Source: Psammoneis japonica (taxonomy: Eukaryota). Taken from it: a stretch of DNA of 64,000 nucleotides. Positions 1 through 64,000 of this stretch are shown one piece after another. The position numbers and the translations under genes are program-made. A model generated the notes under the pieces. The model saw only the letters and a program-made list of their open reading frames with translations, was not told where the DNA came from and searched no databases. Position 1 is the first letter of the stretch, and every line of letters starts with the position of its first letter. The DNA lies in NCBI GenBank assembly GCA_008632985.1, contig QPGO01000220.1, positions 1-64,000 of the forward strand, in the 5' to 3' direction.

Positions 1-410
1 GCTTTCCTCGGCGGAACAGAGCGGCTGGTGTTGAGGATGCAAGCACATCATGTCAGAAACAATCAACTTTTGTTTGGCAAAGCTGAGTTGCACTCGAGCT
101 CTCTTGGCCACTGGTGACTCCACAGGAAGACTTGGAGGGGGGGCATGCACGGGCACAGATGGTGCTTCGGCAGTGGACTGCGACACCGGATTTCGCGGCA
201 TGTCTTGAACAGGCGAAAAAGGCATGTCCATTCCCGCTGCAAGCAATGCTGACACATCCAGCACTTCTCTAACAATGTTGTCAGGCGTCCGAGATTGATG
301 GAGTGAATGTCCTTCACCGGTGTGGCCCGCCGTAGGGTCCGCCATGGTGGAGGGAGAAATCGGCGAAAAATTGCGCGAAAATGCATGCACATTTTAGAGG
401 CTACGACAGC

Positions 411-857
411 TGCAACACACAGCTGCTGACAAGAGTCAATGCATCACGGCGACGTGTTACAGCCTTTAAATGTCACAAAGGGCGTGACAAAATAACCTTT
501 TGTCTGCATGCATGCTGCACTGTGAATTCACAGCAGAGTGGTTCATCGCAACCATTGGGCAGGAGGCCAGGGTTTCGAAACCCTGAGTGGGAGTTGTCTG
601 CAGCAACGTTGATCACTGTCGAACGCGTGGAAACTCTGTGCAGTTCTGCATGTTCCTTCGTACGTACCCACACTGTTCCGCCAAAACCGTGCAGTGTCAG
701 CACACGTTAGTAAAGAGCCGCATGGACACATGACACATGGGGAGGAGTGCAACACACAGCTGCCAATGAGAGCCAATGTATCATGGCGACGTGTTGCAGC
801 CTTTAAATGTCACAAAGGGCGTGACAAAATAACCTTTTGTCTGCATGCATGCTGCAC
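411..857. repeat. ~110-bp direct repeat pair (411-520 and 748-857)
   Basis: TGCAACACACAGCTGC...TTTAAATGTCACAAAGGGCGTGACAAAATAACCTTTTGTCTGCATGCATGCTGCAC occurs twice; differences are mainly TA/TG/CA swaps. Confidence 0.9.
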
Positions 858-1571
858 AGCAACCACTGGGACTTTTTCAACAGATGAAGTGTCGATTCCC
901 ATGTTTTCGGGTGTGGAGAATTCGACTGTGGGGTCAATTCATCGATTGTCCGGCATCTGGTGCGATTGGCGTTAAGACTTCAATCTCTGGCAATTGGAAA
1001 GCTTTCTTTCAAATGGGTGCTGCCAAAGCCTGTGATGGGAGAAGGTTCTCACGCATTGCAGAATTGCGTCAGATTTTTCACGGTGAGATCCACTGGTTCT
1101 TCCCACACTCATTTGTCCGAGGAACTTTTCAAAGGATTTCAAACCTCTTGAGAGAAGATTGAGTGGGTGATTCTTTTGGCTTGGATGCATTGCTGTGGCT
1201 GTCACTTGATTGGAGTCTAAAGAATGTGCCCGGGCATGCTGCAAAGAATGCACTTCAAGTGTGGAGGAGGAGACAGTTTGCAAAATTGCCTCTTTTTCTG
1301 TTGGCGATCATTCACACATCCATTGCTTGACAAGTTTACTGCGGAGCTCGCACGTGGAATTCTACGGGCCCAATGTCACAAAAAGTCCCACCTGGGACTG
1401 GAACCCATCGGCCGCTGGTCCTGTTGTTGACTCCATTCACAGCGCCACATTTTCAATGTGATTGGCACTCAGCTGGAATGTGTTGGTGTTGAAGAGTGCA
1501 CCAACATTCTTCATGGGGCAATTGCTGTGCCCCATCTCATTTCTTCATTGCTGGACATCAAGTTGCGTCTC

Positions 1572-1627
1572 TTGGTTGGTTGGTTGGTTGGTCAGTGGGT
1601 CGGCGGGTCGGTGGTCAGTGGTCGGCG
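1572..1627. repeat. (GGTT)n-like degenerate microsatellite running into an assembly gap
   Basis: ttggttggttggttggttggtcagtgggtcgg...; reverse complement of the 2289-2464 array. Confidence 0.8.
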
Positions 1628-2288
1628 NNNNNNNNNNNNNNNNNNNNNNNNNNNNNNNNNNNNNNNNNNNNNNNNNNNNNNNNNNNNNNNNNNNNNNNNN
1701 NNNNNNNNNNNNNNNNNNNNNNNNNNNNNNNNNNNNNNNNNNNNNNNNNNNNNNNNNNNNNNNNNNNNNNNNNNNNNNNNNNNNNNNNNNNNNNNNNNNN
1801 NNNNNNNNNNNNNNNNNNNNNNNNNNNNNNNNNNNNNNNNNNNNNNNNNNNNNNNNNNNNNNNNNNNNNNNNNNNNNNNNNNNNNNNNNNNNNNNNNNNN
1901 NNNNNNNNNNNNNNNCAGAATTCTGCGTGCGAGCTCTGCAGTGCAAGAATTTCATTGGTGGACATTTTCATCTTCAAGTGCATTTGTGCCTGTCCACACT
2001 CAAAGTTTTTGGCAATCTGCCTGCCCTGCGCCATTCTCAATGCATTTGCAAATGACGCAGAAGAAAAAAATGTCAAAAACTGTTGAATGGATCACCCAGC
2101 AATTGCACTGCAAAATGATGCACAATTCCACCAAAGTCACGTAGAAACACACGTGCACAACACACAGCACGATCCAAAAAAATGTTGATGTCATGGTTCA
2201 GCAGTGCAAGGTCCCGCCCAGAGCTGGAGCGCATCCCCTGACCCTTTTTTGAGCCTCAGAAGTGCTCAAAGTGGCTAAACCTTCATCG

Positions 2289-2464
2289 CCAACCAACCAA
2301 CCAACGGACCAACCGACCAACCGACCAACCGACCAACCGACCAACCAACCAACCAACCAACCAACCGACCAACCGACCAACCGACCAACCGACCAACCGA
2401 CCAACTGACCAACCAACCAGCCGACCAGCCGACCAACCAACCAACGGACCAGCCAACCCGCCGA
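2289..2464. repeat. Tetranucleotide microsatellite (ACCA/ACCG/ACTG/GCCG units)
   Basis: ccaaccaaccaaccgaccaaccgacc... read directly. Confidence 0.95.
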
Positions 2465-2853
2465 CTGAATGACTGGCTTGCTGGCTGAATGTGAGACGTT
2501 GCATTTTGTTGCCAGCTGCAACATTCTCTCAAGGCAAGCCCAAATTGACCGTGTGTTCTGCCTCTTTGCTCCGTTCCCTCAAGGCCTTCTTGAGCTTCAG
2601 CTTGCTTGCCAACAACAGCTTTCACAGCACTGGGACGCAAAACTCAGCTGCGACAGTCAATTTGTCACCAGCTGGCCCCGCAATGCAGTGAACAGTGGCA
2701 AGTCTCATTGATGACTTGGACACAACAGTTCGAGTCTTGTCAACCATGACTGTTTTGAATTTGAATTAGTCGTGCTTTTTATGTTCAAACGAAAATGAAA
2801 AAAAAACTGACATTTTCCCTCACTTTACATTTCAGATTGGTGCCATCGCGACC

Positions 2854-4192
2854 ATGTCGAGTGCAGGAGTGTCTCTTTCCCGTGGTGGATGCAATGATGC
2901 GGTGAAGACATCAAAGATTTTTGAGGTTGGCGCACTTGTGAAAAATGCTGGAACACTTCTCGAAACGCACGTGAATGTGCTAGAATCTGTGGAGTTGGGG
3001 TCTTCAAAGGGAGACAAGGAGAAGCTGTCAAAAATGCTCAAAGATTTCTTTGTTGTTTCACAGAAACTCAAAGAAGGTTCAACCTCACTGACACGAGCAG
3101 CAGCAAATGTGACATCGTTCAAGCGCGGAAACAATGCCAGTGGTTAACTTGAAAAAGAGAGGAAGAGAAAGACATGCGTGAGGAGGAGAGAAATGATTGA
3201 TCGTTGCAGAAAAAGAATCGTGCATTTCGTGAGATGCAAAACTTTGGCTCCAACTTGGTGATGGCAGGAGCGAAGCACAATGGCGACGAAAACAAAGAAT
3301 TGAAAACTGGTGCTGCCAGGACTGTCATTGGACGGGATGGGGGGATCAAGGCACCATGTCCCCTCAATGGATTTCAACACACACCGGCTGAGGCAACAGA
3401 AGCCATTGTTCAGGTGAAGAAATCTGGACACCGGAATTTGGGAGCTTTTGAAGCTCAAATGATCGAGAAGGGCTGTGTGCCTGTCAAGAAGTCCGCGTTG
3501 AATGAGAAAGTCAAAAAGTGCAACAACGGGATGAGAGTGCCCCCTGCATTGGAAAGAATCTGGCGTGGAGCAAGCTTTCTTTGCCTGGCACAAAACGCAC
3601 ATTTGCGCGCCGTTCACAGATGCCATGCGTGCAAAGGTTGGCTACAATGGCGGGCCCATTCATGACAGCAACAAAGCCGTGGCGATGAAGGATGGTGGAG
3701 CACCACAACTCCAAGGGCAGGGCAGGGAAGAGTTGATGGTGCCGCTTGTGAAACAGCGATTCCATCACATGAAGCAGCTGCGCATTCCCAATGAAGACTG
3801 TCACTTTCACTTTGTGCTGCGGGCATTCGAGGAGAACCTCCCAGCACTTTGCGCATTGGTTGTGCCAGCTGGACATGTCAAGACTTGTGCAAAATCTGAT
3901 TCATGCCTTCTGGCATCTCCACAGCAGGGTGCATTTGAGTTGACTCACGAGGGCTGCAATCCAAGTGCCATGGGCTGCTGCTTGTTTTGGGATGCTGTCA
4001 ATGTCGAAGGCTGGACACGCAGTGGGAAAGTGTTCGGGGCTGGCCAAAGAGAATCGGGCTTTCAAAATTCGACATCAAGAACATCTCAAGGCATCAAAGT
4101 GCAAACAGTTGTCGGAGCTGAAGTCGATGTTGCACCTGCTCCATCCACGTGAGTCCGAGGGGCATGGTTTGGACAATCTCCGACATGGGCAC
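2854..4192 (+). pseudogene. Degenerate TpA-depleted coding remnant (possibly a DNA-transposon relic) interrupted by the copia element and probably continuing at 10764-11030
   Basis: Overlapping broken ORFs (2854-3147, 3204-3665, 3565-4152) with protein-like composition but almost no Tyr; family not recognised with certainty. Confidence 0.35.
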
Positions 4193-4468
4193 TGACAGGA
4201 TTTGAACAGGATTTGGGTGCGCGCGAAATGTCGTGCGATGTTTGGTTTGCCGCGCACAGTTTTGTGTGCTTTAGTTCCGCGCGTTCGCACGCGATGTGGT
4301 TTGCTTTCGAGCCACAAGGCTCACAAGAATGACAACAGTGGCCCGATTGCACCAACTTGCACGTCTTTCGGCTCCTGTGACGGTCTCTGAGCGGAGACTC
4401 ATCTGCTGTTTAGACAGCAGCAAGGAGTTGTTGTTTGAATTCTTGCCATTTGCCTTCGATTTCTGTCA
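4193..4468 (+). repeat. 5' LTR
   Basis: TG...CA termini with 6-bp inverted repeat; followed by GATTGGCAGTC (possible PBS). Confidence 0.95.
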
Positions 4469-5408
4469 GATTGGCAGTCTTGCTCATTGTCAACCCATTG
4501 AGCAACCGCCATCGTCGTTGTTGATTTACCGACAACGCCGTTTCAATTCTGCGTGGACCTCCGTGTGTGTTCTACACACATCGGCAAGTCTGCGCGCATT
4601 CAACACCAGGCATCGGCAGGAATTTAACGTCACCGTCAAGTCTCCTTGCCGCTGGATGTCTGGATTGATCACACTGCCTTTTGTCGCTGAAGACATGCAT
4701 TCAACGGTCATGTCCAAGTCTGTCCTTGATCCTCATCCCTTGATGCACCCATTCAACGGTTAACGGTCAAGAACCCTGCACATTCAAGGATCTTCGTCGC
4801 TGAAGACATGCATGTGTGCATGTCTTCACGGCCAAGAACTTGCACTCACTCTTTGGACTGCGGCTTTGCTGCCACTCTACAAGCACACCGAGTCCATTGC
4901 ACCTGATCTACCCCGGACTGCTGGTGCTCTACAGTTCTGCTGGGTCCACGAGGACCACTGTGAGAGCAAGTGGCCGTGATTGCAGCCTACGTTGGGGCGA
5001 GGGTGTTTTTTCCCGCGTTTGTTCGTTCGTCCACAGTGCCTGACGCCTGCGTCAACTGGCCAGCCTGATCGGGAAATCCAACCGACATAAAACAAGAACG
5101 GTTTGGGGGTCTTGTCCACCTCCAGTCAGCTCACCTGCAGGGGTTTACAACCCGCTGCTCCGCTCGCAAGCAACCCAAAGCGCCGCTGGCTGCGGGTTCG
5201 GACGTGCCGGCACAACTCTACGGACCGGACAGGAAGTTTGGCACTTGACAACGAATGGGATAGCACAGCCTGGCGACTTCTGATTTTAAGGCAGTTCAAG
5301 ATTTCAAGTCAAGTCCATTTCAAGTCAAGTCTGTTCTCACCCAAGTTTCAAGTCTGCCTTCGCGCGTCCCAACAAGAATCGCTTGTCCTGACACCACTTT
5401 TGTCTGCC

Positions 5409-8400
5409 ATGGTTCTCACTCGTCAGCAACAAACCGATGGTTTCGAGCACGTTGTTGGAACCGTGCTTGCCCAAGGTGCTGGGAGCCCTCTTCGTTTGGC
5501 TTTGACCCACGACGGCACGGACTCGTGTCAAGAGCTGTTCACGTTCATGCCGTCCCAAATCGACTCGCTTGAGCACGACAACGGCACCAATGTGATCCCT
5601 TTGCCCCGCGGTTGTAAGAACATGTCAGCAGCTCCAACCAGTCTGCACATTGTCAAAGCACACGAAGGTCTTGACGTTGCCAATGACTCCTCGTTGTTCA
5701 CGCATGAGGAGTTCCTTGCCTGCCGCCTCAGCCCCGACTGCATGTCTTCTGCATCCGTTGGCAGCTCGCCCCTCGCACCTCCGCATGTCACCAACCCGAC
5801 CAAGGCACGCGACCCGGTGCGAGACTTCAAGCGAGGCATCAAGCGTGACCCCACCGCTTTCACGGCTCTCAAATCTGACAAGCAGTGGCACACTTGGCAC
5901 ACCTCACTTGTGGCACAAGCCCGTGCCCAAGACGTCGAGTGCACTCTAGACTCGTCGTACAAACCAACCAGCCCCAAAGACAAACTGCTCTTTGCTGAAC
6001 AGCAAAAGCACATGTTCGCCGTCTTCAAACGCATCCTTCTCACCGACAAGGGCAAGGCTCTCATTCGCGAAAATGTGGGGTCTTCTGACGCCCAGACCGT
6101 CTGCCGCGCCTTGTCCGAGCATGCGCTCGCCTCCACCCGCGCATCTGTCAAGTCCTCCACCTTGCTCACGTGCCTCACCACCGCACGTCTTGGTGATGGC
6201 ACTTGGAAAGGTCCGACCCACAGGTTCATCCTTCATTGGCAAGATCAGTCGCGCAAGTGCGAGGCACTCATCCCAGCCAGTGACCACTTCTCTGAAGGAC
6301 AGAAGCGCGTCATGCTCGAGAATGCCGCACATCCTGTCGAGGAACTCCGTGCTGTCAAGAACCAAGCTGATCAGCATCGCATGCAGAGTGGCAAGAGCCT
6401 CACACATGATCAACATTGTGGCTTGCTCCTCTCCGCGGCGGCTCAATGCGACAGTGCGTTTCAACCCAAGATGACACCTCGAGCTCCCCGACGTGCCATG
6501 TGCGCACACGACGTCCACTCCAAGGAACCGTCTGATGATGTGTTCTGTGACATCGACAGCGACATTGACGTCCTTCAGGCCAATGCTGCCTGCCCCTGCG
6601 GTCCCAGCCTCACCGGTGACCAATGGAAGCATCTCCCTCCCAACCACCAACGGATTTGGGATTCGTTGCCCCATTCCTCCAAGGCGATCATCCTTGAGCA
6701 TTCTCATCTGCCTCCCCGTAATCCGCGAGCCAGCAACTGCCATGAGTCCGTTACGGCCAACCTTCACGACCAACACCTTGGGAGTGACAGTGATGTCAAC
6801 TTGTCCAACACGACTCCTGCCGACTCTGGTGACCCCGCTCCAAATGTGGGTGCCACTTCAGACAATCCCATCCTGGCGCACCTCACCAAGTGCAAGCCAC
6901 TGCCACCCGGTGATCTGCAACGCCTGTTGTCGCCCAACCAAGCCCCCAATGCCAGTCGACCGGGGCCATCCGCCGCTCCCTCTACCTCGCCCGCTCCTGC
7001 CGATGACATGGAACTTGACGGCCGCACTTGCCACCGTGTCAACAACCACAATGTCATTTGCTCTGCCTCCGCTCATCGCTCCACATGCACTGGTGCTCCA
7101 GTTGATCGTGGGGCCAACGGCGGCATTGCTGGCGATGACGTTCGCATCATTGCACGCACCTCTCGCCAAGTCGACGTTCAGGGCATTGACGACCATCAAT
7201 TGGTGGACATCCCCATTGTCACCACTGGTGCCGTCATTGAGACACAGCGTGGTCCCGTCATTGCCATCCTCCATCAGCACGCACACACGGGAAAGGGCAA
7301 GACCATTCATTCCTGCGGCCAGCTCGAATGGCACAAACAGGATGTCAATGATCGCTCTGTCAAGGTGCCCAACGGCTTGCAATGCATTGCCACCCCTGAT
7401 GGCTGTGTCATCCCAATTGACGTCAAGGGCGGCCTGCCTTGTGTTGCCATGCGACCTTGCACTGATGCCGAATGGGACACCCTGCCCCATGACATCCTTG
7501 CTGGTGATGACACATGGGATCCTTCCGTCCTCGATCACTCTGTCACTGACGACGACCAGTGGTGCGACGTGATCTCTGACCCACAGGATGATCCCACTGC
7601 CAACCCATTTGACGAACACGGCAACTGCCATCATCGTGTCGTTGTCAACAAGACCATCATGTCCGCCTCCTTGTCTGCCGATCACGCGTCCGCCCTCGAT
7701 GACCATCTCATTCCGAACGACGACGTGTTCTACGAGTGTCATCTGCACGCGATTGACCCCAAGGACGACGACGTTCCGCCCCTGGAGCGCACTGTGCAGC
7801 CCAAGGACCCCCCCTTCAAGTCTCTTCGGCCTTGCTTTGGCTTCCAACCTGCCGACATGGTTTGTCGTACTTTCGACTGCACCATGCAGTGCGCCCGCAT
7901 GCCCGCCGGTGCACACCTTAGGAAGGCCTGCAAATCGCCCAACCCTGCCCTCAATGTGCACCGCCGCAACGAGCCCATCGCCACTGTGTGGACGCTTTGT
8001 TGGCATTGCTGAGCACGTCGGCCACCAAATGACCTTCAAGATTCTCTCTGACGAGACTCAGAAGATCCTCTGCCGGTCCAACGTACGATCCGCTGCCACC
8101 GATCCTGCCGTTCGAAACCTGCGTCTTGATCCTCCTGATGGGGAGCCACCTGAACCCATCATCAAATCTCGCCATGACGACAACCCCGTCGATTCACCCG
8201 ATGGGGAGATCAGGACACCCAAGATGCCAGTTTTCGATCCGCAAGACATCATCGGACGCACCTTCCTCATGCAGCCACAAGAGGACGGACAGCGCCACAG
8301 AGCTCACATCGTCAAGGCCGTCGAAGACCACGAATGGAAAGTGAACGGCAATCCCGAGCTCACTGAGTTCGTCTGCTCTGTCAACAACGACGAATGCGAG

Positions 8401-10430
8401 GAAGTCCTGGCCTGCAACGACATCATGAATCACATTGAGCAAGAAGACGAAGACACTGCTGTTTGGAAATTGCGGCGCATTGTGTCACACGAAGGACCTC
8501 TGAAGCCTCATGACCCAACCTGGAAAGGCTCAAGCTGCAACATTGTGCTTGAACGGGAAAGTGGGGAGATCACGTCCGAGCCTCTTGCCATCATCGCCAA
8601 GGACGACCCTGTCACCTGCACCATCTATGCATGAGAGAACAGACTTCTCGACACTGATGGCTGGAAGTGGTTCCGCACCATCGCGAGGCGCCAGAAGAAG
8701 CCATTCCGCATGGCCAACCAAGCCAAGCTTTGCTCCTTCCACACTGCACCTCGCTGCAAGTACGATGCGAAGTTCCCCGGAACTGCAAACCTGCCATGTC
8801 ACTAGACGAACGCAACGGCAACCGCAAATGGGGAGACGCAACTAATCTCGAGATGGACCAACTCAAGGAATACGAAGTCTTCCATGACTGCGGGCCCTCC
8901 GAGTCTTCCACTCCTCCTGCGGGACACAAGAAGATCCGAGTGCACCCAGTGTACGACGTGAAACACGACGGTCGCCACAAGGCACGACTCGCAGCCGATG
9001 GGCACCTCACGGACGTACCCATCGACAGTGTCTGCTCCGGAGCAGTCTCCCTCCGTGGCCTTCGGCTGATGATTTTCCTGGCCAAACTCAACGAGTTGGA
9101 GACATGGGCCACCGACATTGGCAATGCCTGCCTTGAAGCCACCACCAAGGAGAAGCTCTACATTGCAGCCGGACCTGAATTTGGCAAACTCAAAGGCCAC
9201 ATCCTTGTCATCCACAAGGCCCTGCATGGACTGCGCAGCTCCGGCCTCCGCTGGCACGAGCGCTTTGCCAACTGCCTGCGAGCTGAAGGCTTCTTCCCCT
9301 GCCGCACCGAACCCGACATTTGGATGTGCAGGAACAGCGACCACTGCGAACACATTGCCATTTATGTGGATGACCTCGCCATTGCCATGAAGGACCCTCA
9401 ATCTTTCGTCGACACTCTCATGGAAAAGCACAAGTTCAAGCTCAAGGGTGCGGGACCGATTGAGTTCCATCTGGGCTGCGACTTTTCCCGGGATCCCGAC
9501 GGCACCTTGTGCCTGTCTCCGCGCAAGTGCATCGAGCGCATGGTCAACAGCTGCACCCGACTGTTTGGGGAGAAACCTGCCACCAACGCCCTGTCACCTC
9601 TGGAGAAGGGTGACCACCCCGAACTGGACACTTCCGAACTGCTGGGGCCCGATGGCATTCACAAGTTCCAGTCTCTTGTTGGTTCACTCCAATGGGCAGT
9701 GTCCCTTGGTTGAATTGACATCACCACGGCCGTCATGTCACTCTCTAGCTTCCGAGCTGCGCCCCGTCAAGGCCACTTGGATCGTGCCAAACGTGTCTGT
9801 GGGCACCTCTCCAAGATGCGACACGGCGCTCTCCGCGTTCGCACGGAAGAGCCTGACTGTTCGGATCTCCCTGCTCCAGCCCATGAATGGATGCATTCCT
9901 TGTACGGCGAAGCAGAAGAGATGATCCCAAAGGATGCTCCACTGCCCCTTGGCAAGTTTGTCACTGCCACCCACTGCGTCGATGCAAACTTGTGCCATTG
10001 CATGCTCGCCGGACGCTCTGTCATGGGAATGCTCCACTTCCTCAACAAATTCCCGGCTGATTGGTTCTCTGAGAAGCAAGCCACCATGGAGACTGCGACC
10101 TGCGGGTCTGAATTTGTTGCCGCAAGGACTTGTGTCGAGCAGATTGTCGACCTGCGCATCACCCTGCGCTGCCTTGGCGTCCCGATCCGTGATGTCAGCC
10201 ACATGTTCAGTGACAACAAGTCGGTTGTAGACAGTGCCACCATCCCACACTCCAAGTTACACAAGCGACACACCGCACTGTCGTTCCACCGTGTGCGTGA
10301 GGCAATTGCCTCTGGTTGCCTTGAGTTCCACTTCATCGAAGGCTCCCGCAACCCTGCTGACATTCTCAGCAAGCACTGGGGTTGCTCCCAAGTCTGGGAC
10401 CTTCTCCGCCCCCTCATGTTCTGGAACTTC
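5409..10430 (+). pseudogene. Copia gag-pol pseudogene (gag, aspartic protease, partial integrase, RT, RNase H)
   Basis: DFKRGIKRDP (gag), VDRGANGG (protease), GRFVGIAEHVGH (IN C-term), HKARLAADGH/DIGNA/YVDDL (RT), GSEFVAAR/DNKSV/NPADILSK (RNase H); frameshifts near 7990 and 8760; TGA stops at 8632-8634 and 9711-9713. Confidence 0.93.
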
Positions 10431-10482
10431 ATTCCATCCAAAGTCGAATCTGTTTCTGTGGCTCCTCAAGCAAACTGGGGAG

Positions 10483-10758
10483 TGACAGGATTTGAGCAGG
10501 ATTTGGGTGCGCGCGAAATGTCGCGTGCTGTTTGGTTTGCCGCGCACAGTTTTGTGTGCTTTGGCTCCGTGTGTTCGCACGCGATGCAGTTTGCTTTCGA
10601 GCCACAAGGCTCACAAGAACAACAACAGCCGCCCGATTGCACTGACTTGCACGTCTTTTGGCTCCTGCAACGGTCTCTGAGCGGAGACTCATCTGCCATT
10701 TAGACAGCAGCAAGGAGCCATTGTTTGAATTCTTGCCATTTGCCTTCGATTTCTGTCA
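10483..10758 (+). repeat. 3' LTR
   Basis: Ungapped match to 5' LTR (about 24 substitutions by manual alignment); preceded by short purine tract GGGGAG. Confidence 0.95.
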
Positions 10759-11342
10759 GGCACTTCCAAAACTTGGAAGCATTTGTGGGCATGGGCTTTT
10801 CAGAATCAAATGGAACAGAGAATGTTGTCAATGCTCAAGATGGTGTTTTCATTTGGAGCAAACGCACATTGAAGAAGCTGCAAGAGGCCAAGATGAGCGG
10901 TGCCGAGATGAAGTCGAAACAATTGCATCTAGTCTCACACATGCTTGAGTGCATTTACGATCTGCTCATTTCCCCATCCAAGAATGTTTCAGTTAGTTTC
11001 GGTTTCGAAATGTTCTTGGGAACCTTTAACTGATGCTATAGCAGTGGTTGCATCCACATCGTAGCCGGCTAATGATCATTGCCGGAATTTGCAACACCAC
11101 GCGTGATGCGCTGTGTGCATTGTGCATGCCGTTTCACACAAAAAACATACAGTACTACCGTACGAGCTCTGCACTGAGGGTAATGCAATTATGTTTTTTA
11201 AAGCTTTTGGAGCTCNAAGCCGGTCGACCGGCTTTTTTCCTACACCTGTAGATACGAAGTAGGAGAGTAGGGCCCAGCCTACCTACCGGTATTTATTAGT
11301 CTACCGGCGTGAGTTCCGAGACAGAAATAAGCTGTACCTACC

Positions 11343-21689: not shown

Positions 21690-22289
21690 GGTCTTGCCAC
21701 CTCTGTTGATTCTCCGTGTTCTGCTTCCAACTAATACGTCGCAATGCAATCTAATGAAAGAGCAATCAGTCAACCTGCAATACTTCTGCAGGCTCCAATC
21801 GGTTTTAGACGGGGTTGTGGTCTTGCAACAGGAACGACTACAAGATGCGGTTCGTTTTTTGTTTTTGAGCAGTTGTTCGGGTGAAAAAGTGTGAGGTGAA
21901 ACTACGTGTGTTTATATTCATCCTACAGTGCTGTTAATATAACATCGGTTGAACGGATGAAAGTGAAATTCAGCGAGCTGTATCTTTATTTGTACGTAAC
22001 GGCAAGAACTCGCAAAATGATACTAAAAAAATGAAAAAAGACATTTCAGGCATGCACATTACTTATTAAAGAATAAAATTATTTATAAATGAGTGTATGC
22101 AAATGATCTTGCGTGACATCAACGCACACAACGCATGGATGGAGGGCGGGGGAATCGCGCGACTTCGCACGCTTTTTGGGTGACTGGAATTCGAAAATTC
22201 ATGGAGAGAAAAAACAAAGCGACCCCCAAACATGGTTCTGTCATTTTCGGAATTTGGGAACAACTCTAACTCTAGACACAACATAAACA

Positions 22290-23389
22290 CGCAACCTTGT
22301 CCATGACATTCACCATTGACTTGATTTGTTGGCAGGCAAACTGAGGCTGATGTCAGCGCAGCAACTCTTGCAGAGGTTGGTGACGTTGCAAGAAAAGGCC
22401 CACCCACTTGCAAGAAGTTTTGATCAGGAAGAACGAGAAGCAGATTGGATGAAAAGAAGGCACAGAAACAACATGAAGAAGCCTCTATGACCAGATCTGA
22501 AAAGGGCATGACAAACCTGTGGAGGAGATCAATGAGCTCCTCTGCAAAGGCGTGAAGCGTTGAAACCCATGAAGCCAAAGCCATTGATGGAAAAAGAGCA
22601 TCAGACAGACAAGAGGAAAGCACCAGAAGAGTGGAGATTTAAAGAGCCAGAAGTTGAAAATGAGGAGCTCATGCTGCAAAATGAAGTGTTGATGACTCGA
22701 GCCCAGCAGTTTGAAGCAGTTGGCAGCGACCCCAGGGTCAAGACACTGCATGTGTCGACTTGGCATTCATGATGGGGCACAGGGAACAAAGCTCAACGAA
22801 ATGAAAACAAAAGCAGAGGAGGAGCTGCATGATGCTCAAGGCAAGAATTGCAGTCCATGGACAAAGAACAATGAGCTCAAAGCTGCCATTGACAAACTGA
22901 AAACAAGAGCCATTGAAACAAAAATGAGAGGCTGCTGAAGCATGTTGCACGTCATCATCGAAGAGGCGAGCAGCCGAGAGCTCAACAACACAAAGAGAAG
23001 CTGGAGAAGGAGCTGCACGTGGCTTTGTGTGGATGTCTGCAGCCTGTCTGCTGAGAACAAGAGATTAAAAAAAGAAAAGTTTTGGCTTGAGAAGGGTGTG
23101 GAAAATTGAAATCAGCATGTTCTCAACATTGCAAAAACTTTGACACCCTCAGCAGAGAAAAATGTGATTGCAGAACCAGAGCATGGAAATGCTGGAGGTG
23201 GACATGGACAACTAAGAAAATCATTGCAGTCATGTGGGTCTCCGCAAGGATCAGCAACAGCCCAGTGAGTGCAATGTGCTATGTGAGGATGAAATCTTGT
23301 TTTTCGGATAAAATGAGCTGAAAAGGATCGCTGCTTTAAGAAGATGCTTGGTTCCACCTTGAAAATCTCAAGTCTTTGTGGTGGTGGTG
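22290..23389. repeat. TpA-depleted degenerate island (coiled-coil-like coding relic) adjacent to a gap
   Basis: Broken Glu/Lys-rich + strand frames, very few TA dinucleotides versus TA-rich flank at 22000-22290. Confidence 0.5.
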
Positions 23390-23563
23390 NNNNNNNNNNN
23401 NNNNNNNNNNNNNNNNNNNNNNNNNNNNNNNNNNNNNNNNNNNNNNNNNNNNNNNNNNNNNNNNNNNNNNNNNNNNNNNNNNNNNNNNNNNNNNNNNNNN
23501 NNNNNNNNNNNNNNNNNNNNNNNNNNNNNNNNNNNNNNNNNNNNNNNNNNNNNNNNNNNNNNN

Positions 23564-26392: not shown

Positions 26393-27724
26393 CATCTTGG
26401 GACGCATAACACTGGTTAGTCACGAGGGAAATTGTATAGAGCAATATTAATCATGGACCGTCACTACTATAGCTAGTTGGAATACACAGAAGAATGCTTG
26501 GAATCGCAGAACAATCCCTCCTTTAGCGAATTGAATTGAGCGAGTTCTGAGAACTAGCGATTTGATTGCTCATTTGGAAGAAATGAATGATGCTACTGAA
26601 ATATCTAGTTTAGTGCCCATCAAGATATTATGCAACACGGGAGGGTTTAGCAAATGTCCGATAGCGGGTCCAATGTTTCGAGTGAACCCTGAAGTAAGAC
26701 AACGTTTGTTTGAAAGCAAGTGCAGCTTTGCAATGCTGAAAATTAAAATGATGTCAACTACAGCTAATTTGCCTTACTGAGAAAACAGACTCCCCCCCCT
26801 CTCTCTCTCCTCTTGGTGTCCTCGTTTTCTATAAGAGGTTGATCCATGCACCCGCATCAGAAGCAAGCAAAGGTGAATTTTCGTCGGGCATGTCTTCGTC
26901 CGAGGTCTGAATCATGTGACACGAAAGAAACTGCCCAACTTTCCTTGACACCACTTTTCCATGCTCGGTCTCGGGTTCCAAAAAGGACGTTGAGGCAATC
27001 CTTGCAAGATGTCACAGACCAGAATTTCTTTAGTCAGCAAGTCTTGAGAATGCCATCATCGCAGCACTGTAGGATTGAATCCCGCTCCGCACTTGATCAT
27101 TGTCAACCTGGCAACAAGCACTCCAAACAACAAAGCAGAAAGCCCAAAGCAAAGAGACAGGCCCAGAGGGAGCATTGGGTGAATCCCAGTTGATCACAGG
27201 AGAGGTCAGCACAGCAGAAGAAGACACCAGCAGTTTGCTCAGTGGACATCACAAGCCAAGTGCAAAGCCATGCATGGCTGCTGGGTTGTCATTGGTGCTG
27301 ACAATCTCAATGTGCACTTGTCAATGATGTGCTTTTTGCAGTTTTGCAGAGAGAGAAAAGCAAGCTTGGTGAGTCCTTCCAATGTTGATCACAGAGTGAA
27401 ACTGCATGAGTGCTCACTTGCTGTTTCACTGCCAAGGGCAGAGAAAGACAAGTGTGCTCCACTGGGCTGCTGACAGCAGAGTGCAAAAAATCGCCTCCAC
27501 ACCCACAACAAAGTCCAGCTCTTTTGATTTTTAGCACCACCAATGTGACTTCCAGCTGGCCTGATTCAGGCGCAACATCCCTGTTGATCCTGCATCATTT
27601 TGGCCCCTCTTTGTTGTTCTTCTAAGTGCCAGCACAGCCTCTGCCAAACTCAGAACAGTGCTCCATGGTGACGAGTCAGGAGATTTGCATCTGTGCAGCC
27701 AACCACCAAAAGAAATGGCACAAT

Positions 27725-28095
27725 CATCATGATGAAACAGCAAGAGTCCAGTGGTGCAAACCCAGCCAGGGCCTGCACATCCAGGCAGGCTGCTTGTGCT
27801 GATCTGAGCAAAAAACACTCTCTCTGTGACCACCAGAGAGAGCAACTGTGTCAGAGGAGCTGGCAGCAGGTGATGGCAGGGCCTGTGACCAGCATGTGGC
27901 TGCTGTGTTCATGACAAAACAGCAGGCATCTGGCAGCCCAAACCCAGCCATGACCTGTGCACCCAGGTGGGCTGCTTCTGCTGATCTGAGTGAAAGGCCC
28001 TTTTTGCAACCAGAGAGTGGCTGTGGCAGAGTGGCCAGCAGCAGCAGCTGATGGCAGGGCCTGCAACCAGCAGCATGTGGGGCTGCTGTGCTCTT
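27725..28095. repeat. Degenerate ~185-bp tandem duplication
   Basis: AAACCCAGCCA...GCTGATCTGAG and GATGGCAGGGCCTG..ACCAGC..ATGTGG each occur twice. Confidence 0.7.
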
Positions 28096-37200: not shown

Positions 37201-37325
37201 CGCGCATGAGGTCACCGTGCACCGTCGTGTTTGAGTCACCTTGATGACACCAATGTTCTGCGATCTGCGATCTGCGATCTGCGAAATTGTGAGATGTTGT
37301 GATCGTACTGAGCATCACCATCACG

Positions 37326-38405
37326 ATGAGATTATTTGGATTCAGAACGACGCTTCTGTCGCCTCTGTTTCTGCTTCGCTCGGACGCGGTCGGGGATTGG
37401 TACGATGCATGGGGCGGGACCATACGGACCCTCGATAATGCATTTGAAGTCGACCCGAACGACAGCCGAACTATGATGCGAGGGTCGGGCAGCATCACAC
37501 TGGGCAACGGAATCTGCAAGATGTCCGCAAGCCCCCGCCTTTACATCAGCCACTCATCGGATGTGGCAGGGTGGGAGAATACCGACTTCCAGGTGTACGG
37601 AATGTTCGTCCAAGCTGGCAACCTGAAGAGCTACTCCGGCCTTACCCTGGTGACCCGGTCCAATCACGATCTGTACAGCACCGACGGCTGCGAGGCAATG
37701 GGATACTACGCAAGAATCTACTGGCAGACGGGCGAGCTGTCGTTCCAGAAGGAGTATTACCATGGGTCGGGTGGCACAGTTTACAGCCCATCGAAGAGAG
37801 TCCCGTACTTTGTCAACGGCGTCCCAATGAACACCTGGATCGGGATGAGGTTCACAGCCACAACGACCGGCTCGAACAACGACGAGGTACAGCTGAAACT
37901 TTACCTTGATGAGGTTGGCGACGGGAGCTGGGTCCTAAGACACTCGTACACCGACAAATCTGGCGAGTGGTTGAGCACAAGCTCGTCCACCGTCCCAGCA
38001 GAATGCCCACAGAGCGATGGCGACACGGTCCTGGGCCCGCGCAACGTCTGCTTTCTCCGATCCGACGGGTCGTCCGACACGGAGGTGCACTGGAAAGACG
38101 CTCTCGTCCTCAACGAGTTGGATCCATTGCCGACATCGTCCCCAGCTCCGTCGACTTCTCCGATTCCTATCGTTTGTGAAGGCATCGTGCCCAAATCGGC
38201 ATGCAACGACGCTTTCGGTGGTTCTGTGTGCAAATGGAGTGGGCACCCAAATAAAGGATCGTGTGGGCCTGTTGATGGCGGAGGTGCAGGGCCCGGACCG
38301 CCCTCGGGTTGTGGTGGAAACAATGCCCCGTGCTCCACCCCCTCGCAAAACACCGCTGATTGCTGCAGTGGCTGGTGCAAAGCAAATGGGAAGTGCAGTA
38401 AATAA
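37326..38405 (+). CDS. Putative secreted protein: beta-sandwich (lectin/polysaccharide-binding-like) domain, P/S linker, Cys-rich C-terminus
   Basis: Hydrophobic N-terminus; aromatic-rich beta strands (NTWIGMRF, VQLKLYLD, FLRSD); C-terminal C..CCSGWC....KC; start could be 37299. Confidence 0.7.
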   Translation: MRLFGFRTTLLSPLFLLRSDAVGDWYDAWGGTIRTLDNAFEVDPNDSRTMMRGSGSITLGNGICKMSASPRLYISHSSDVAGWENTDFQVYGMFVQAGNLKSYSGLTLVTRSNHDLYSTDGCEAMGYYARIYWQTGELSFQKEYYHGSGGTVYSPSKRVPYFVNGVPMNTWIGMRFTATTTGSNNDEVQLKLYLDEVGDGSWVLRHSYTDKSGEWLSTSSSTVPAECPQSDGDTVLGPRNVCFLRSDGSSDTEVHWKDALVLNELDPLPTSSPAPSTSPIPIVCEGIVPKSACNDAFGGSVCKWSGHPNKGSCGPVDGGGAGPGPPSGCGGNNAPCSTPSQNTADCCSGWCKANGKCSK

Positions 38406-52661: not shown

Positions 52662-54123
52662 GGTGATATTGTTGATGCGATACTTCACTTTCTTGCCAGA
52701 ACTGCGATTGTGAGACGAAGAAAGTGCGTGGCACAGTGCGTGCTTGCGTCTTTCGGATTTTCGCGTGAAGGCAATCGTGTCCGTCAAGTGCGAAGTTGGT
52801 TTTGACACAATTTAAACGGTACTGGGTCAATCAAAGTAATCATCTCGAATCCAAACTTGGAATGGCGCTACAATCTTCAGCGTCATGGCACAGCGCTTTT
52901 TCGTTCGCTCGTTTGCTCCTGGAGACTTTGCCAGAAATCTGTGTGAGGCAATCATTTTTGTCGTGCTTTCCGTTGACACGCATCTGACACTTACTTCTAT
53001 TTATAGTGGGGCTGTAGCGCCCAGCGCGGCTGAAACGCCTGACTTATGTGCGTACCAGCAAGAGAAGCCGACCAGGCAAGATCTGAATCTCCTGACCGAT
53101 GGCTCGACACCAGCAACGACCCAATACCAATAGTTCTATGACTCATCCAGCTTTGAAGGAAAATCAAGTCCAAACTTCTGACAACTCACTCAGCCNAAAC
53201 CTCAAGAAAGCAAAAATCAACAGCGATGGCAGAGAAAAATGGTTTTTGACAACAAGGGAAGCTGAGACACATCATCTGGGTGCCAGCCACTGATGTTGAG
53301 ATGCCAAGTGCCAAAATGCACATGGTGACACTCCACTCACATGATTCCATGCAACACAAGCACCATGTCATGTCCTCGTTGTGCTGTTCACCACTGCAGA
53401 AATGTTTGAAACGTGTTTTGTCAAAACTCGCTGCACACAGCTCGTCTGCCAACAAGGGCGCAGACAAAGCTTTGGAAAGCAGCGGCCCAAGAAAGCAATC
53501 CACCAACCCTTCCACGCCACACCCAGCGATGGCAAGAGTGCTCCCATTTCCATTTTTATAGAAAATTTAGATTCTCCGTTTCTTCCTTTGGAACCTTCTC
53601 CTGTCACAACCACAGAGCCCACCTCCAACCAGACACCACCAGCAGCATCGCGCCAAGGAGACTTTTTGAGACTGCCGGTTCATTTGCAAAATTCATTGAT
53701 CCCAATGATTCAGCTTCCTTTAGAGTCCCATTCCAAGACACCCAACATTTTTGGCAATCGACAAAATTAACTTGAAATTCACAATGTCTTCTGAACCACA
53801 ATCGCGCGAGAAATTGTGAGCTGCAGCAGCTTCTTCAAACATGGCCCACCACCACGACATCATCTGCTTCGCGAGAACATCGTACCACACAACAAGTCTA
53901 TTGGCAAACACACGACACCTCAAAGCTCTGCTGCAGGGCCTGGATGCCTTCTCCAACAAGTTCGCCACCGGCACTGCTGTGAACTTCCACAACACGCGGG
54001 GCAATAAATGTACGAAAAAAAAGCGCGAACAACCAGCGAAAGCTTGGCAACCCGGATCTCGGTATCCGAAACTTTCCATCCGACATGCGAACAGCACATC
54101 CAACATCAAAAACCGATTTCACC

Positions 54124-60474: not shown

Positions 60475-61292
60475 TTGGTGCGTTTTGTAACATGAAGGGA
60501 AAAAAGAGAAAGGCTTGATTTATTTGTACAGCGTAGACGCGACTTCGATCCAGGACGTATGGTATGATCCACGCCGTTTTTCGATTTGCGTTTGTTGCAA
60601 CAAAAGATGCAATGTTTCATAACATGTTCAGAGCAGCGAGCTCAAAACAAAGAGGAGGACGTTTCCATGAAGACTAAGCCGCCCAAAAATTGATCCCAGC
60701 GTGCGAAAAGTGCACCAGGATCATGGAGGTCCGTCGCAACTGGGATGGCGGGTATTCTTTACCAACGCAATGCTGACGCAGGACTTTGTCTCCAACTTGG
60801 ACTTCGATATGCAGCTGTAAGAACGTGAAGGGATCTTGTTGAAGGCATAGCTGTCACGAAAGCCGACTCCTCTTAGTGACTTGACTGCACCACGCACCTG
60901 GCCACCTTGGCCTTGGTCCTCGTCCACTCATCTCCTCCTTTTTGTCCCTGCTCTGTCTCCTAGTCCCACGTTGGCAGCACCACTCATCATTCTGCATACT
61001 TCCACCATTCCTTCATTTGGAAGGCCAATCAGCTTCACGACTTTCGCTGCAAAGTTCAATCCAAGCTTTCAAAGGCCCTGAGAACTGAGAACGTTATGTT
61101 CTATCCCCGCGCTTCTTTACGCACCTCCGCATCTGCATGCCGGCCCCGCGAGGCCGGCCCGAGGCGCAATGCGCCGGTGCTCGGTGCACAACTTCACTAC
61201 AAAACCTCAAATAGCATGTTGACCACAACCACATCTATTCTTGTTTAGTCTTTGACGAAGCAACATACACCTCCCAACATTTTGTTGTCATA

Positions 61293-62237
61293 ATGCTTGA
61301 ACTGTTGTTTCTCGGTATATTTGGTGGGGTGGCATTTTCTCTCTTGGAGACCATGATGGAAATTGTATTTCTCTTGGATGCTTTCATGATGCAAATTGAA
61401 ATTCTCTTGGATGCCGTCATGCAAATTGTATTTTGGGCCCTGGCGATTGTATCAGCCATTGCCTTGATGAACATCATTGTCTTAATTGTATGGATTGGGA
61501 GGTATTTGAAGAATCGTCAACCACAAAACAAACTCAACTCTGACGATGTGCCGTCGACGACTGCCAGGAATGAGTCTGGCGAAGAACCATCTCCGGTCCG
61601 AACGACTCTCTTCGACACAACTACAGAATCAGCACTCTCACGGGAGATCGAGTACCTGGATGTAATGATGCCACCCTCACAGAACAACGATAATCAAATA
61701 GTAAGGGAGGAGGCAAAGTATGACATGGACGAGCGACCGCCACCAGAGAATCCAGATTACCATCCGGAAGACAATCGCCGGTGGTTGACTCCTCAACCGT
61801 CGGCGTCGGCACCCAAGGAACCTGACTCAACTGATACGCCGCATCCTCATTTGAAGTATGCTGCAGATTGGATCACTATTGGAGTCACCTTCCTCTGCTT
61901 CATGGTATTATTTTCGTCAATGATCGATGGACAGGGGTCAAAACAGCATAGAGGCGTGCATCCTCCTTCGGCCTTCAATCCCTCCTTCAACTCTACAACC
62001 GGAACCCGATACGACACTTCCTACGGTACACGAGAGATGACAAGCATACCATCCGACGAGCCGTCGTGGCTCGCATATTTGAACAGCGATTTTGACTACG
62101 ACTACTATTGGAACTATTTCTCTCAATCGACATTGGGTGACGTGGTTGACTCGATGATAGAAGTCTTTTGGGACGACCGCGTCCGAGTCTTACTAGGCAC
62201 GTCCGGGCATTATCCAGAGGGAAGCTACTGTGAGTAG
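61293..62237 (+). CDS. Hypothetical membrane protein with short N-terminal tandem repeat
   Basis: LLETMMEIVF/LLDAFMMQIEI/LLDAVMQIVF repeat, two hydrophobic segments, intact 314-aa ORF. Confidence 0.55.
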   Translation: MLELLFLGIFGGVAFSLLETMMEIVFLLDAFMMQIEILLDAVMQIVFWALAIVSAIALMNIIVLIVWIGRYLKNRQPQNKLNSDDVPSTTARNESGEEPSPVRTTLFDTTTESALSREIEYLDVMMPPSQNNDNQIVREEAKYDMDERPPPENPDYHPEDNRRWLTPQPSASAPKEPDSTDTPHPHLKYAADWITIGVTFLCFMVLFSSMIDGQGSKQHRGVHPPSAFNPSFNSTTGTRYDTSYGTREMTSIPSDEPSWLAYLNSDFDYDYYWNYFSQSTLGDVVDSMIEVFWDDRVRVLLGTSGHYPEGSYCE

Positions 62238-62479
62238 GCTTAGCGACCCTATGTTCTCGTTGCCACCATTGCCTGTGTAGCGGTAGAGCTTGTGACAGGT
62301 GTGTGTTGCTCCATTACATTAGTAGTTTTCATTTTTTTATCACCACTTGACGGAAACGCTGTCGCTGAAAAGGCACTTGTCATGCCCACGGTTTGTCTGT
62401 CCAAGCCTTTCTTTGAGATTGTTGCTATGTGGCAATGCTTCGGAAGTCGCAGGAGCTAGGTAGAGCCATCTGTTGGAGC

Positions 62480-64000
62480 GTTTTTCCGCTCTTCAAGAGG
62501 TTCGTTTTGGGTGAGCTCTCTGTCAGCATTTTGTCAGACACAAACTCTTCTATTGAATCACACTTGCTGTTGAGGATGCCCATCTCTGTATCACTGCTTT
62601 GTCACCAGGCACTTCTGTCTCAAAGCAAACAAGGGTGACAAAACTGTCTTGTTGCTTGACAGAACATGACTCATTCTGTGCCACACAAATGGGCTGTTCC
62701 TCCTGGTTGCAAACTCTTTGTTCTTGGAGGACTGGTGATTGCTTGCCAGCAAAGCCAAGACTGCAGCAGCAACTCTCTCCAGATTCCAGTGTGAGTGCGC
62801 ACAATTCATCGCTGTGCCCTGAGCAACTTGCCACCTGGCTGCAGCTTCCCCGTGCTTGCTTTTCTTTCAAGGGGGTGGGTGGGTTGGGTGGTGCTGCTTG
62901 GCAAGGATGAGGGGTGGTTGTTGGGTGGTTGTGCTGCTGTTGGCACACCTGGGTCATCTCTCACAAACCACACCACTCTTTGAAGCTGGCAATGACTTCA
63001 GGCAAGTGCAGAGGCACACTGCATGCTGGCTGGAGGGCTTTCTAGAAGTGCAGCCAGCTGTCTCTCTCCAAGAAATTTCTCTCTTCTCCTGCCATCTTTG
63101 TCCATGGGGCAGCTCTGGTGTTGTTGGCTGTGGCTGCAAGCCAAAACAATGGACCGAGAGTTTTGACTCTGTTTTCTTTGCTGGTCTTTGCCAGCTCTCT
63201 CCCTCTCCCTCTCAAATGAAATGGTGAGTTGGCAGGCATGGCCAACCACCCATCAAATGTGACTGACAAGGAACAGAAACCAGCCAAGGCAGAAGTCATT
63301 TGTTTGATGTTCATCCAAGTGCCGCAGATTGACAGCAGGCACAACAGCACAATTTTTGGTTTGCAGCACAACCCTTTCTCTGCAGTGCAAGTGCACCACA
63401 ACAGTGTGTCATTGCCAGTGTTTTGTTGTGTTGCATGTTGGAAATGTTGTGTTGTTTTTGGTGTTCTGAAATGACAAAACACACAACAATCATCAATGTC
63501 CATCTGCAAACACATCTGCAATGCAAAAAATGTGCTCCGTTGATGAATTGAAGACAGCACAGCCAGCGTGAATTTCTGGTGTGTCACTTCACTCACAAAC
63601 ACAAGTTTTTCTCACTTGTTTTCATGGCCCTCTTTCTCACCTGGTTTTCCTGTTTTGGTTTTCACTGGCTTCTCGCTGCACTTTGGCACAGTGGAGAGGG
63701 TCGTGGAGAAAGGAAGATTGTTTTGAAGATCATGATCGTGCTTCTTCTCTGCAGTGTTCAGGATGGATGTGTCAGTCATGACCACCAGATTCAGAGTGCG
63801 CACATTTCCTGGCTCCACATCAAGGCAAATGAGTTCATCAAACCATGCTTTTGAGTTCAATTGTGAAGCACACTTGCAACAGCAGTCACAAAATGCAGTC
63901 GCGCTGACACCAGATGCTCACTGCATTGCTCTCATCTGTGGCACCCTCTGCATTGTTGTGCAGATGCTCTGTGATTGTTCCTCCAAGATCACATCCATCA
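62480..64000. repeat. TpA- and CpG-depleted degenerate repeat block (continues beyond the window)
   Basis: Only about 3 TA seen in 1.5 kb; TG/CA-dominated; no credible ORF. Confidence 0.75.

Follow-up and report, generated by a model that had tools for sequence, protein, structure and literature searches.

Introduction

To our knowledge, every well-studied hypermutation defence, be it repeat-induced point mutation (RIP), APOBEC or AID, deaminates cytosine. A local natural mutator of chromosomal DNA working in the A:T-to-G:C direction has been reported once before, in a 2026 preprint on a rhizarian alga, Bigelowiella natans. According to the parts of that preprint available to us, two viral inserts received 231 of the 302 nuclear mutations seen in mutation-accumulation lines of B. 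natans, and 230 of these 231 were A-to-G or T-to-C changes, all 230 on TpA, at ~1000x background (Mettrop et al., bioRxiv 10.64898/2026.01.13.699255). The same source describes 124 clusters of TpA-poor, CpA+TpG-rich windows and an enrichment of low-TpA coding sequences in reverse transcriptase (RT) and DDE domains, and it proposes, as a hypothesis, an ADAT2-like deaminase; DNA-acting forms of TadA/ADAT2 include engineered TadA base editors and, as cited there, amphioxus ADAT2 (bioRxiv 10.64898/2026.01.13.699255). The present analysis concerns 64,000 nucleotides of the diatom Psammoneis japonica (assembly GCA_008632985.1, contig QPGO01000220.1, positions 1 to 64,000, forward strand; this whole stretch is called the window), in which blocks of transposon-type DNA, among them a Ty1/copia long terminal repeat (LTR) retrotransposon, have exchanged nearly all of their TA steps for TG or CA beside normal genes. 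An original prediction, made from the letters of the window, had read these blocks as the product of a repeat-targeted, RIP-like adenine mutator belonging to no described system; its outline is borne out below, but it was too specific in making repeats the trigger, and on the last point the B. natans report, in the parts available, has overtaken it.

Measured against the cytosine-directed systems, the diatom locus resembles RIP in its local, near-saturating transitions at one dinucleotide, on either strand of chromosomal DNA, in probably cytosine-methylated regions where transposons are inactivated. It differs in direction, since RIP turns the C:G pair of CpA into T:A and so adds TpA, while in the diatom TpA is lost in favour of CpA/TpG; the fungal CpA-to-TpA change is thus found in reverse. 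With APOBEC3 the locus shares context-specific, deaminase-style transitions that ruin the coding capacity of retroelements, but APOBEC3 produces G-to-A on the plus strand via C in minus-strand cDNA before integration, whereas here A:T pairs are changed on both strands after integration. The TadA/ADAT2-ADAT3 enzymes offer a likeness in that their target A is preceded by U or T and that inosine (I), the product, is read as G. The natural TadA site is UACG, and we know of no established natural role of the TadA/ADAT family that is DNA-directed and chromatin-targeted. ADAR, too, clusters its A-to-G changes on either strand of repeats and prefers a 5' U, but it is metazoan and acts on RNA, whereas the events here are at the DNA level and follow another 3' preference.

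The closest likeness is to B. natans, where, in the available parts of the preprint, the change is also A:T-to-G:C at TpA only, giving TpG or CpA by strand, selfish or foreign DNA is affected beside a normal genome, and the long-term footprint is TpA-poor and CpA+TpG-rich (bioRxiv 10.64898/2026.01.13.699255). The window shows each of the signature features that could be compared. The host there is a rhizarian (chlorarachniophyte) and here a diatom (stramenopile); the targets there are nucleocytoplasmic large DNA virus (NCLDV) and virophage inserts and here an LTR retrotransposon together with unnamed blocks; and the observed-to-expected ratio (o/e) is 0.45 in the NCLDV region as against a near-saturated 0.03-0.15. 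In the diatom, a pyrimidine is preferred on the 3' side and CpG decay occurs in the same blocks, whereas a de novo rate was measured only in B. natans. Term searches of the available preprint text found no occurrence of 'context', 'trinucleotide' or 'diatom', and literature searches for a TA-erasing signature in diatoms returned this preprint alone; in a paper on diatom retrotransposons (PMC2806351), a term search of the text available found RIP, hypermut-, dinucleotide and tyrosine to be absent.

TA-depleted blocks in the window

Dinucleotide o/e was profiled in 1-kb windows across the 64 kb. TpA o/e was 0.01-0.26 in the 1-kb windows of 1-11000, 27001-37000 and 63001-64000, and 0.22 and 0.24 in those holding two small blocks, as against 0.38-0.80 in every 1-kb window outside blocks. 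Altogether 22 of 64 paired a TA o/e no higher than 0.26 with raised TG and CA, a footprint of the B. natans type, and TG and CA o/e ran at 1.3-2.7 in the 1-kb windows of the blocks and at ~1.6-2.0 for the blocks themselves. Segmentation at no more than 3 TA per 300 bp (Table 1) recovered the nearly TA-free, TG/CA-rich blocks of the original prediction at matching coordinates, with normal genes between them. Pooled TA o/e was 0.09 in blocks, 0.67 in unique non-ORF DNA and 0.48 in long open reading frames (ORFs); the blocks lie so far below unique non-ORF DNA that they cannot simply reflect non-coding composition, and the predicted inequality between repeats and unique intergenic DNA is thereby seen. 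AT, AA and TT showed no depletion. The TA switch at block edges, read from lists of TA positions, takes ~100-400 bp and lies in non-coding DNA, tens to hundreds of bases from normal genes. One-kilobase windows, segments and pooled ratios therefore agree in limiting the process to transposon-type blocks beside normal genes. CpG is nearly absent as well (o/e 0.02-0.19) in 27-37 kb and 63-64 kb, and mildly lowered (0.56-0.93) in 1-11 kb, a feature absent from the original prediction.

Of the claim that the blocks are repeat-derived, the part concerning the copia element with its LTRs, the tandem arrays and one gene fragment stands; the other blocks gave no identity. The 48 ORFs of the unnamed blocks yielded no Pfam match above cut-off, and self-comparison of the window in purine/pyrimidine space found no family common to the blocks beyond the LTRs, tandem arrays, a 115-bp repeat and a gene pair, so that repeat origin is demonstrated only in part. 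An AraC-type Pfam match in one block ORF (19.9 bits against a cut-off of 27.6) was taken as chance.

Direction of change

The copia element carries an RVT_2 domain at 8658-9713 (E=5e-22; 79 bits, cut-off 31.6) with flanking direct LTRs, and its internal region aligns by tblastn with 55 full-length relatives; no target-site duplication or primer-binding site could be made out by eye at its ends. Where these 55 relatives agree, 881 codons could be scored. Among the 48 with a Tyr consensus, 7 are kept in the element, 24 have become Cys (TGY), 12 His (CAY), 4 Phe and 1 Trp, so that ~85% of Tyr-codon TA is gone (41/48) and 36 of the 41 lost codons now read TGY or CAY, whereas non-Tyr residue classes are 67-100% kept. 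In the RT domain taken by itself, with 120 relatives for comparison, Tyr survives in 2 of 15 columns and has given way to Cys in 6 and to His in 4. The 24 Cys (TG) and 12 His (CA) outcomes, together with the intermixing of TG and CA, bear out the earlier assertion that both strands are affected.

A second polarisation comes from a gene pair. The 5' end of an intact secreted-protein gene, whose TA and CG density is normal from 37306 on, has a dead copy inside the 27-37 kb block and serves as a proxy for the ancestral state. Over 240 aligned bases, the 6 TA of the intact copy correspond to 3 TG, 2 CA and 1 AA in the dead copy; of its 22 CG, 14 have become TG or CA and 5 are kept; other positions changed at 12 of 177; and nowhere is TA or CG confined to the dead copy. 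When bases are scored only as purine or pyrimidine, identity goes up from 84.7% to 96.3%. From the Tyr-codon losses (41/48) and the gene pair (6/6 TA lost) it is established that TA is ancestral and TG/CA derived, as had been predicted, and that CG was also ancestral in the old 27-37 kb block. The changes are almost only A:T-to-G:C transitions at TpA, with CpG-to-TpG/CpA in addition within 27-37 kb. The contrary possibility, that TG and CA arose from CG and not TA, fails for the copia element and holds only in part for 27-37 kb, where some of the TG/CA excess is due to CpG decay, given the 14 of 22 CG so changed in the gene pair. The chemistry is, as claimed, opposite to that of RIP and 5-methylcytosine decay, TA being lost and TG/CA gained.

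Action on chromosomal DNA

The two LTRs of a retroelement are identical when it integrates. Those of the copia element now differ at 26 positions: 12 lie in six TG<>CA doubles, 5 are CG<>TG/CA, 1 is TA<>TG and 8 are others, and identity rises from 90.8% to 99.3% with purines and pyrimidines collapsed. Since 16 CG are kept in both LTRs and 6 in one only, double loss of the same CpG would be expected to yield ~0.2 TG<>CA sites, by arithmetic on the LTR counts, and the six doubles are therefore old TA steps converted independently, to TG in one LTR and CA in the other. An orientation bias of 5/6 among them is not significant (estimated p ~0.2). That the TA change was made in chromosomal DNA after integration is thus established, and a real DNA-level process converting TA to TG or CA can be regarded as practically certain. 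Within blocks TG and CA are roughly equal and intermixed (runs-test z -2.2 to +1.6); as their clustering is no higher than in control DNA, no long strand-coordinated tracts are seen.

These observations bear directly on an ADAR-like origin, in which transposon dsRNA would be hyperedited from A to I and the changes fixed by reverse transcription and reintegration. Such editing would turn A into G on either strand, favouring a 5' U, and the target best characterised in the window is indeed a retrotransposon. However, the six LTR doubles show that RNA editing ahead of reverse transcription cannot by itself account for the signature, leaving room for some shared changes inside the element, and the signature is carried also by the host-gene fragment, tandem repeats and flanking DNA, so that non-retroelement DNA in the blocks (the dead fragment and tandem units) has been hit too. 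With the refractory sites being, moreover, those with a 3' purine, an ADAR-like origin is very improbable.

Sequence preference

Survival of TA was tabulated by 3' neighbour, strand-symmetrised and relative to non-block DNA. In the copia block it is x0.05 for TAT, x0.19 for TAC, x0.26 for TAG and x0.25 for TAA, and in the 27-37 kb block x0.02, x0.04, x0.11 and x0.20, respectively. The surviving TA of the blocks (n=124) are enriched in TTAA (x4.0), TTAG (x3.2) and CTAA (x2.8), with ATAT found 0 times and ATAC once. Tyr codons provide a polarised check, as there the 3' neighbour of the plus-strand A is a pyrimidine and that of the minus-strand A is the complement of the base before it: a purine precedes 10 of the 12 codons that became His through change of the minus-strand A, and a pyrimidine precedes 20 of the 25 with a TG outcome (24 Cys, 1 Trp; Fisher p = 7e-4). 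Within one tandem array the TTAA step (CTTTAAGA) is kept in 5 of 8 unit anchors at 31942-33510, the others reading TTAG (1), TTGA (1) and TTCA (1), a within-array replicate of TTAA being refractory. It is thus highly probable that the preferred target is the A in 5'-TAY-3', equally the T in 5'-RTA-3' on the other strand.

The original prediction had named, as one candidate, error-prone patch repair by a Y-family polymerase recruited to the blocks. Pol eta makes WA-to-WG changes, as in somatic hypermutation, and such repair would leave A:T-to-G:C transitions, preferentially after a 5' T or A. However, AA o/e in blocks (1.20) is no lower than elsewhere (1.14-1.17), and AAG (x0.92-0.94) and AAC (x0.99-1.11) stand at x0.92-1.11 beside x0.02-0.26 for TAx; AA being untouched argues against a WA-type process, and near-total saturation at one dinucleotide is unlike a polymerase error spectrum. 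This candidate is accordingly disfavoured, with very little probability left to it.

The symmetry of the target also admits that thymine is attacked, by a TET/JBP-type dioxygenase oxidising T at TpA in silenced DNA. Oxidised T, as 5-hydroxymethyl- or 5-formyluracil, mispairs with G and gives T-to-C. Because 'A in TAY' is 'T in RTA', the data fit equally, and the blocks look epigenetically marked, given their CpG decay; of the predicted adenine mutator, then, the A:T-to-G:C change at TA stands, whereas a thymine-directed process on the other strand would do as well. Against it, neither the window nor the literature searched points to thymine modification in diatoms, and the only other study of the signature, in the parts available, proposes adenine deamination, as a hypothesis (bioRxiv 10.64898/2026.01.13.699255). 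We consider thymine oxidation unlikely, if less so than polymerase error. Adenine deamination is favoured as the simplest chemistry for A-to-G with a same-strand neighbour rule, and as the hypothesis of that other study; that the enzyme is an adenine deaminase is nonetheless a tentative assignment, a little short of even odds.

Relation to CpG decay

Cytosine methylation is described as a transposon-control mark in mammals, plants and fungi in a study of the DNA methyltransferases of the diatom P. tricornutum, in the parts of it available (PMC9998398). In the copia element, TA o/e is 0.10 while CG o/e is still 0.82, and arithmetic on the LTR counts gives a loss per LTR copy of ~80-90% for TA, 11-14% for CpG and ~1.5% for other sites, which places the TA process on the order of 100x background substitution and 10x CpG decay. 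For comparison, 80 related copia loci were taken from metagenomes, chosen by conserved peptide patterns and best tblastn score. Some have CG o/e as low as 0.03-0.23 and none has TA o/e below 0.43; TA erasure was seen in 0 of 80 loci and in 0 of 1214 1-kb windows (TA o/e <0.3), figures that give a baseline and not a prevalence. Four of these loci (L073, L019, L076 and L064), with CG o/e 0.03-0.23, high TG/CA and TA 0.43-0.61, are classic methylation decay without TA erasure. Set against such CpG-poor, TA-ordinary loci, the copia element identifies CpG decay and TA erasure as separate processes that coincide here.

Targeting

Homology-dependent targeting in the manner of RIP would have duplicated DNA sensed, perhaps around meiosis or auxosporulation, and TA mutated in the copies, with the same chemistry. 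All nameable block content is duplicated in some way (LTRs, tandem arrays, 115-bp repeat, gene fragment), and the sharp edges in non-coding DNA look as if the element itself were recognised. However, the intact copy of the ~240-bp shared stretch keeps 6 of 6 TA and its CG, although 240 bp may be under a length threshold. Unitig depth over 26.8-30.4 kb is 35-67, like that of genes (57), whereas the normal-TA 25.0-26.8 kb shows 275-365, depth not being copy number. Further, the hypermutated NCLDV insert of B. natans is reported as single copy in the available parts of the preprint (bioRxiv 10.64898/2026.01.13.699255). The repeat-targeted, RIP-like element of the original prediction draws no support from the untouched intact gene or from the word depth of most of 27-37 kb, which is that of neighbour genes (again depth and not copy number); homology-dependent targeting is doubtful, though the least improbable of the rivals weighed here. 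Targeting by element or chromatin, not homology, is somewhat favoured. It is suggested by the untouched 240-bp duplicate, the non-coding edges, the coincidence with CpG-decayed DNA and the single-copy NCLDV target in B. natans, none of them decisive.

Read support

Every one of the 30 bins of 22000-40000 is covered by unitigs of short-read run X1. One of these, 1394 bp long (28787-30180) and lying in the block, matches the window letter for letter; two more depart from it in 7 and 10 letters. It might be supposed that the signature is an artefact or a matter of composition, through modified bases being misread or wrongly polished, through GC-biased gene conversion, or through import from a TA-poor donor; two assembly gaps do adjoin blocks, and the stretch is present in runs of one study only. 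The exact match over 1394 bp excludes assembly or polishing error, and so answers the proposed check of whether reads lack the TG and CA bases. In addition, polarisation at the protein level and by duplicates (Tyr-to-Cys/His changes, LTRs and the gene pair) marks real changes that a read artefact could not produce, and since AT, AA and TT are not depleted there is no general AT-to-GC drive. Such an origin is scarcely credible, the least so of all the alternatives.

Tyr-poor homologues

The Tyr-to-Cys/His pattern recurs in other copia RTs of public protein sets. Among 120 length-matched RT homologues, P0209 keeps 4 of 15 Tyr columns (6 Cys, 3 His), and among 120 longer ones none is clearly affected, P0358 being partial at 9/18. 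Three of 149 cluster representatives (P0377, P0498 and P0450) are without any Tyr and have Cys+His of 12-15%; Tyr is kept in 0 of 15 columns in P0377 (9 C, 5 H), 0 of 7 in P0498 and 0 of 8 in P0450. P0405, P0401 and P0384 are partly affected. These Tyr-poor cluster representatives belong to other copia lineages, at 49-56% identity to the query.

A model of TA erasure

Taken together, the data are best explained, at a probability that we put at roughly 0.55 for the whole, by a locally targeted and very fast A:T-to-G:C conversion at 5'-TA-3' that may be a deaminase-based genome defence. A:T pairs at TA steps of chromosomal DNA are converted after integration and on either strand, each TA becoming TG or CA, in the order of preference TAT > TAC >> TAG, TAA. 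The activity is confined to transposon-type, CpG-decaying blocks, which are probably methylated and silenced and whose edges are defined to ~200 bp or better, and it continues near to saturation, where coding capacity is destroyed as Tyr turns to Cys or His. Chemically, adenine may be deaminated to hypoxanthine, which is then read as G; the enzyme would be a TadA/ADAT2-like nucleic-acid deaminase or some other protein of the deaminase fold. Its recruitment to silenced or selfish DNA might depend on chromatin marks or small RNAs and not on repeat pairing, and its role would be genome defence, like the TpA hypermutation of B. natans.

Several points weigh against this model. ADAR and fungal ADAT-type mRNA editing favour a 3' G, not a pyrimidine, and the attacked base is ambiguous, A in TAY being T in RTA on the other strand. 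The 3' context is drawn from 124 survivors and 37 Tyr codons of one window. No deaminase-like gene lies within the 64 kb. Chromatin targeting is read only from the co-located CpG loss, and the blocks may still depend on repetition, copy number being at issue. The choice of metagenome loci favours intact copies, the Tyr-poor homologues could stem from this same genome or from others, and the read run possibly comes from the assembled sample itself, so that it does not represent an independent isolate.

It is conceivable, if rather unlikely, that diatoms and chlorarachniophytes, and perhaps SAR widely, have in common a dedicated defence enzyme, a natural DNA adenine deaminase specific for 5'-TAY that chromatin marks or small RNAs would direct to viral inserts and silenced transposons. 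If so, it would be to A:T pairs what RIP and APOBEC are to C:G pairs, and the first natural base editor to act on adenine in chromosomal DNA. The diatom case indicates that the TpA process is no quirk of one species and extends its targets from viral inserts to LTR retrotransposons; new here are the TAY rule, DNA-level action as seen by LTR comparison, and the separation from CpG-methylation decay. Several diatom species are genetically transformable, so that enzyme and targeting could be found, and a natural DNA adenine deaminase, if real, would be of interest for base editing.

Other features of the window

Table 1. Positions of the blocks, repeats and genes discussed in the text; segments are those delimited by TA count.
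Feature	Position	Strand	Details
Ty1/copia LTR retrotransposon	4186-10759	+	RVT_2 between direct LTRs
5' LTR	4186..4469	+	284 bp, 90.8% identical to 10476-10759
Internal gag-pol region, hypermutated	4470..10475	+	frames 5091-8012, 7573-8634, 8658-9713, 9714-10703
3' LTR	10476..10759	+	
Dead copy of gene 5' end	29985..30219	+	copy of gene 37293-38405
Intact counterpart	37321..37552	+	5' end of secreted-protein gene, ORF 37293-38405; ancestral proxy
Segment	801-4900		TA n=21, TA o/e 0.09
Segment (copia element)	5201-10900		TA n=27, TA o/e 0.10, CG o/e 0.82
Segment	22101-23600		TA n=11, TA o/e 0.12, CG o/e 0.43
Segment	26901-37400		TA n=36, TA o/e 0.05; CG 0.15, TG 1.84, CA 1.81
Segment	53101-53700		TA n=6, TA o/e 0.15
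Segment	62501-64000		TA n=3, TA o/e 0.03, CG o/e 0.16
TA-depleted block, origin not identified	1..4185		upstream of and contiguous with copia element; TA o/e 0.03-0.26, CG o/e 0.56-0.86
115-bp direct repeat	411-525 / 748-862		within block 1..4185
Assembly gap	1628-1915		within block 1..4185
Microsatellite	~2288-2488		CCAACCGA/CCAACCAA-type 8-mers, within first TA-depleted block
TA-free flank past 3' LTR	10760..10930		TA n=0 in 10701-10930, then 8 TA in next 140 bp
Small intergenic block low in TA and CpG	22100..23389		stops at assembly gap 23390-23563; TA dense to 22096, again from 23564
10.4-kb block almost without TA and CpG	26900..37300		contains tandem arrays and dead gene fragment
Tandem array	31015-31829		unit 254 bp x 3.2
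Tandem array	31859 to ~34116		unit ~190 bp
Small intergenic TA-poor patch	53140..53950		between two genes; no TA 53137-53557
Block low in TA and CpG	62480..64000		continues past window end
AAA-ATPase gene	38871-41396	minus	
Bifunctional dehydroquinase/shikimate dehydrogenase gene	42180-44936		
NUDIX hydrolase gene	45630-46487		
TCP-1 epsilon gene	49104-50786		83-85% identity to diatom proteins; best named Trieres chinensis, Attheya septentrionalis
RING-finger protein gene	55554-56414		

The 15 ORFs of the block upstream of the copia element are without Pfam match. The two copies of its 115-bp repeat differ by 3 TG<>CA doubles, 2 TA<>TG/CA and 1 CG<>TG, and the CCGA/CCAA alternation of its microsatellite may be CpG-to-CpA decay itself. 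Past the 3' LTR, the TA-free flank is either mutation spreading or the rest of an older mutated element. In the tandem arrays of the 10.4-kb block, five units compared show TG<>CA in 56 of 164 adjacent double differences, the next commonest type numbering 11. A further array at 47029-47598, built of ~70-145-bp units, sits in ordinary intergenic DNA that is not depleted; two of its 206-bp segments differ at 33 positions with just 2 TG<>CA doubles, so that tandem repetition alone is insufficient to bring the signature. Both long runs of N, the assembly gaps at 1628-1915 and 23390-23563, are inside or at the edge of hypermutated blocks.

The stretch 25005-26807, with TA o/e ~0.45 and normal CpG, holds an ORF of 419 aa (25133-26392) that has no Pfam match. 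Its summed unitig depth (275-365, against ~57 in neighbour genes) and a 508-bp unitig ~92% alike at depth 200 may mark a multi-copy gene family without hypermutation, depth not being equal to copy number. The four host genes at 42180-44936, 45630-46487, 49104-50786 and 55554-56414 include no deaminase and no obvious chromatin factor, and a tRNA scan of the window found none. In the AAA-ATPase gene, a unitig of run X2 bridges 84 nt at 39232-39317 with CT..AC ends (GT..AG on the minus strand); the join may be a spliced intron, and run X2, labelled 'DNA?', may be RNA. No RNA run is listed among those containing the stretch. Run X2 has next to no cover over 27.4-37.0 kb, which is no evidence on expression.

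Loss of TA removes TAA and TAG, and TGA accounts for 1129 of 1303 stop triplets in blocks as against 1457 of 2694 elsewhere, so that long spurious ORFs open on both strands. The blocks thus probably feed Tyr-free, Cys/His-rich 'proteins' into public databases. For example, a frame of 399 aa lies on the minus strand of the copia element at 6858-8057 (region 5946-8057, minus).

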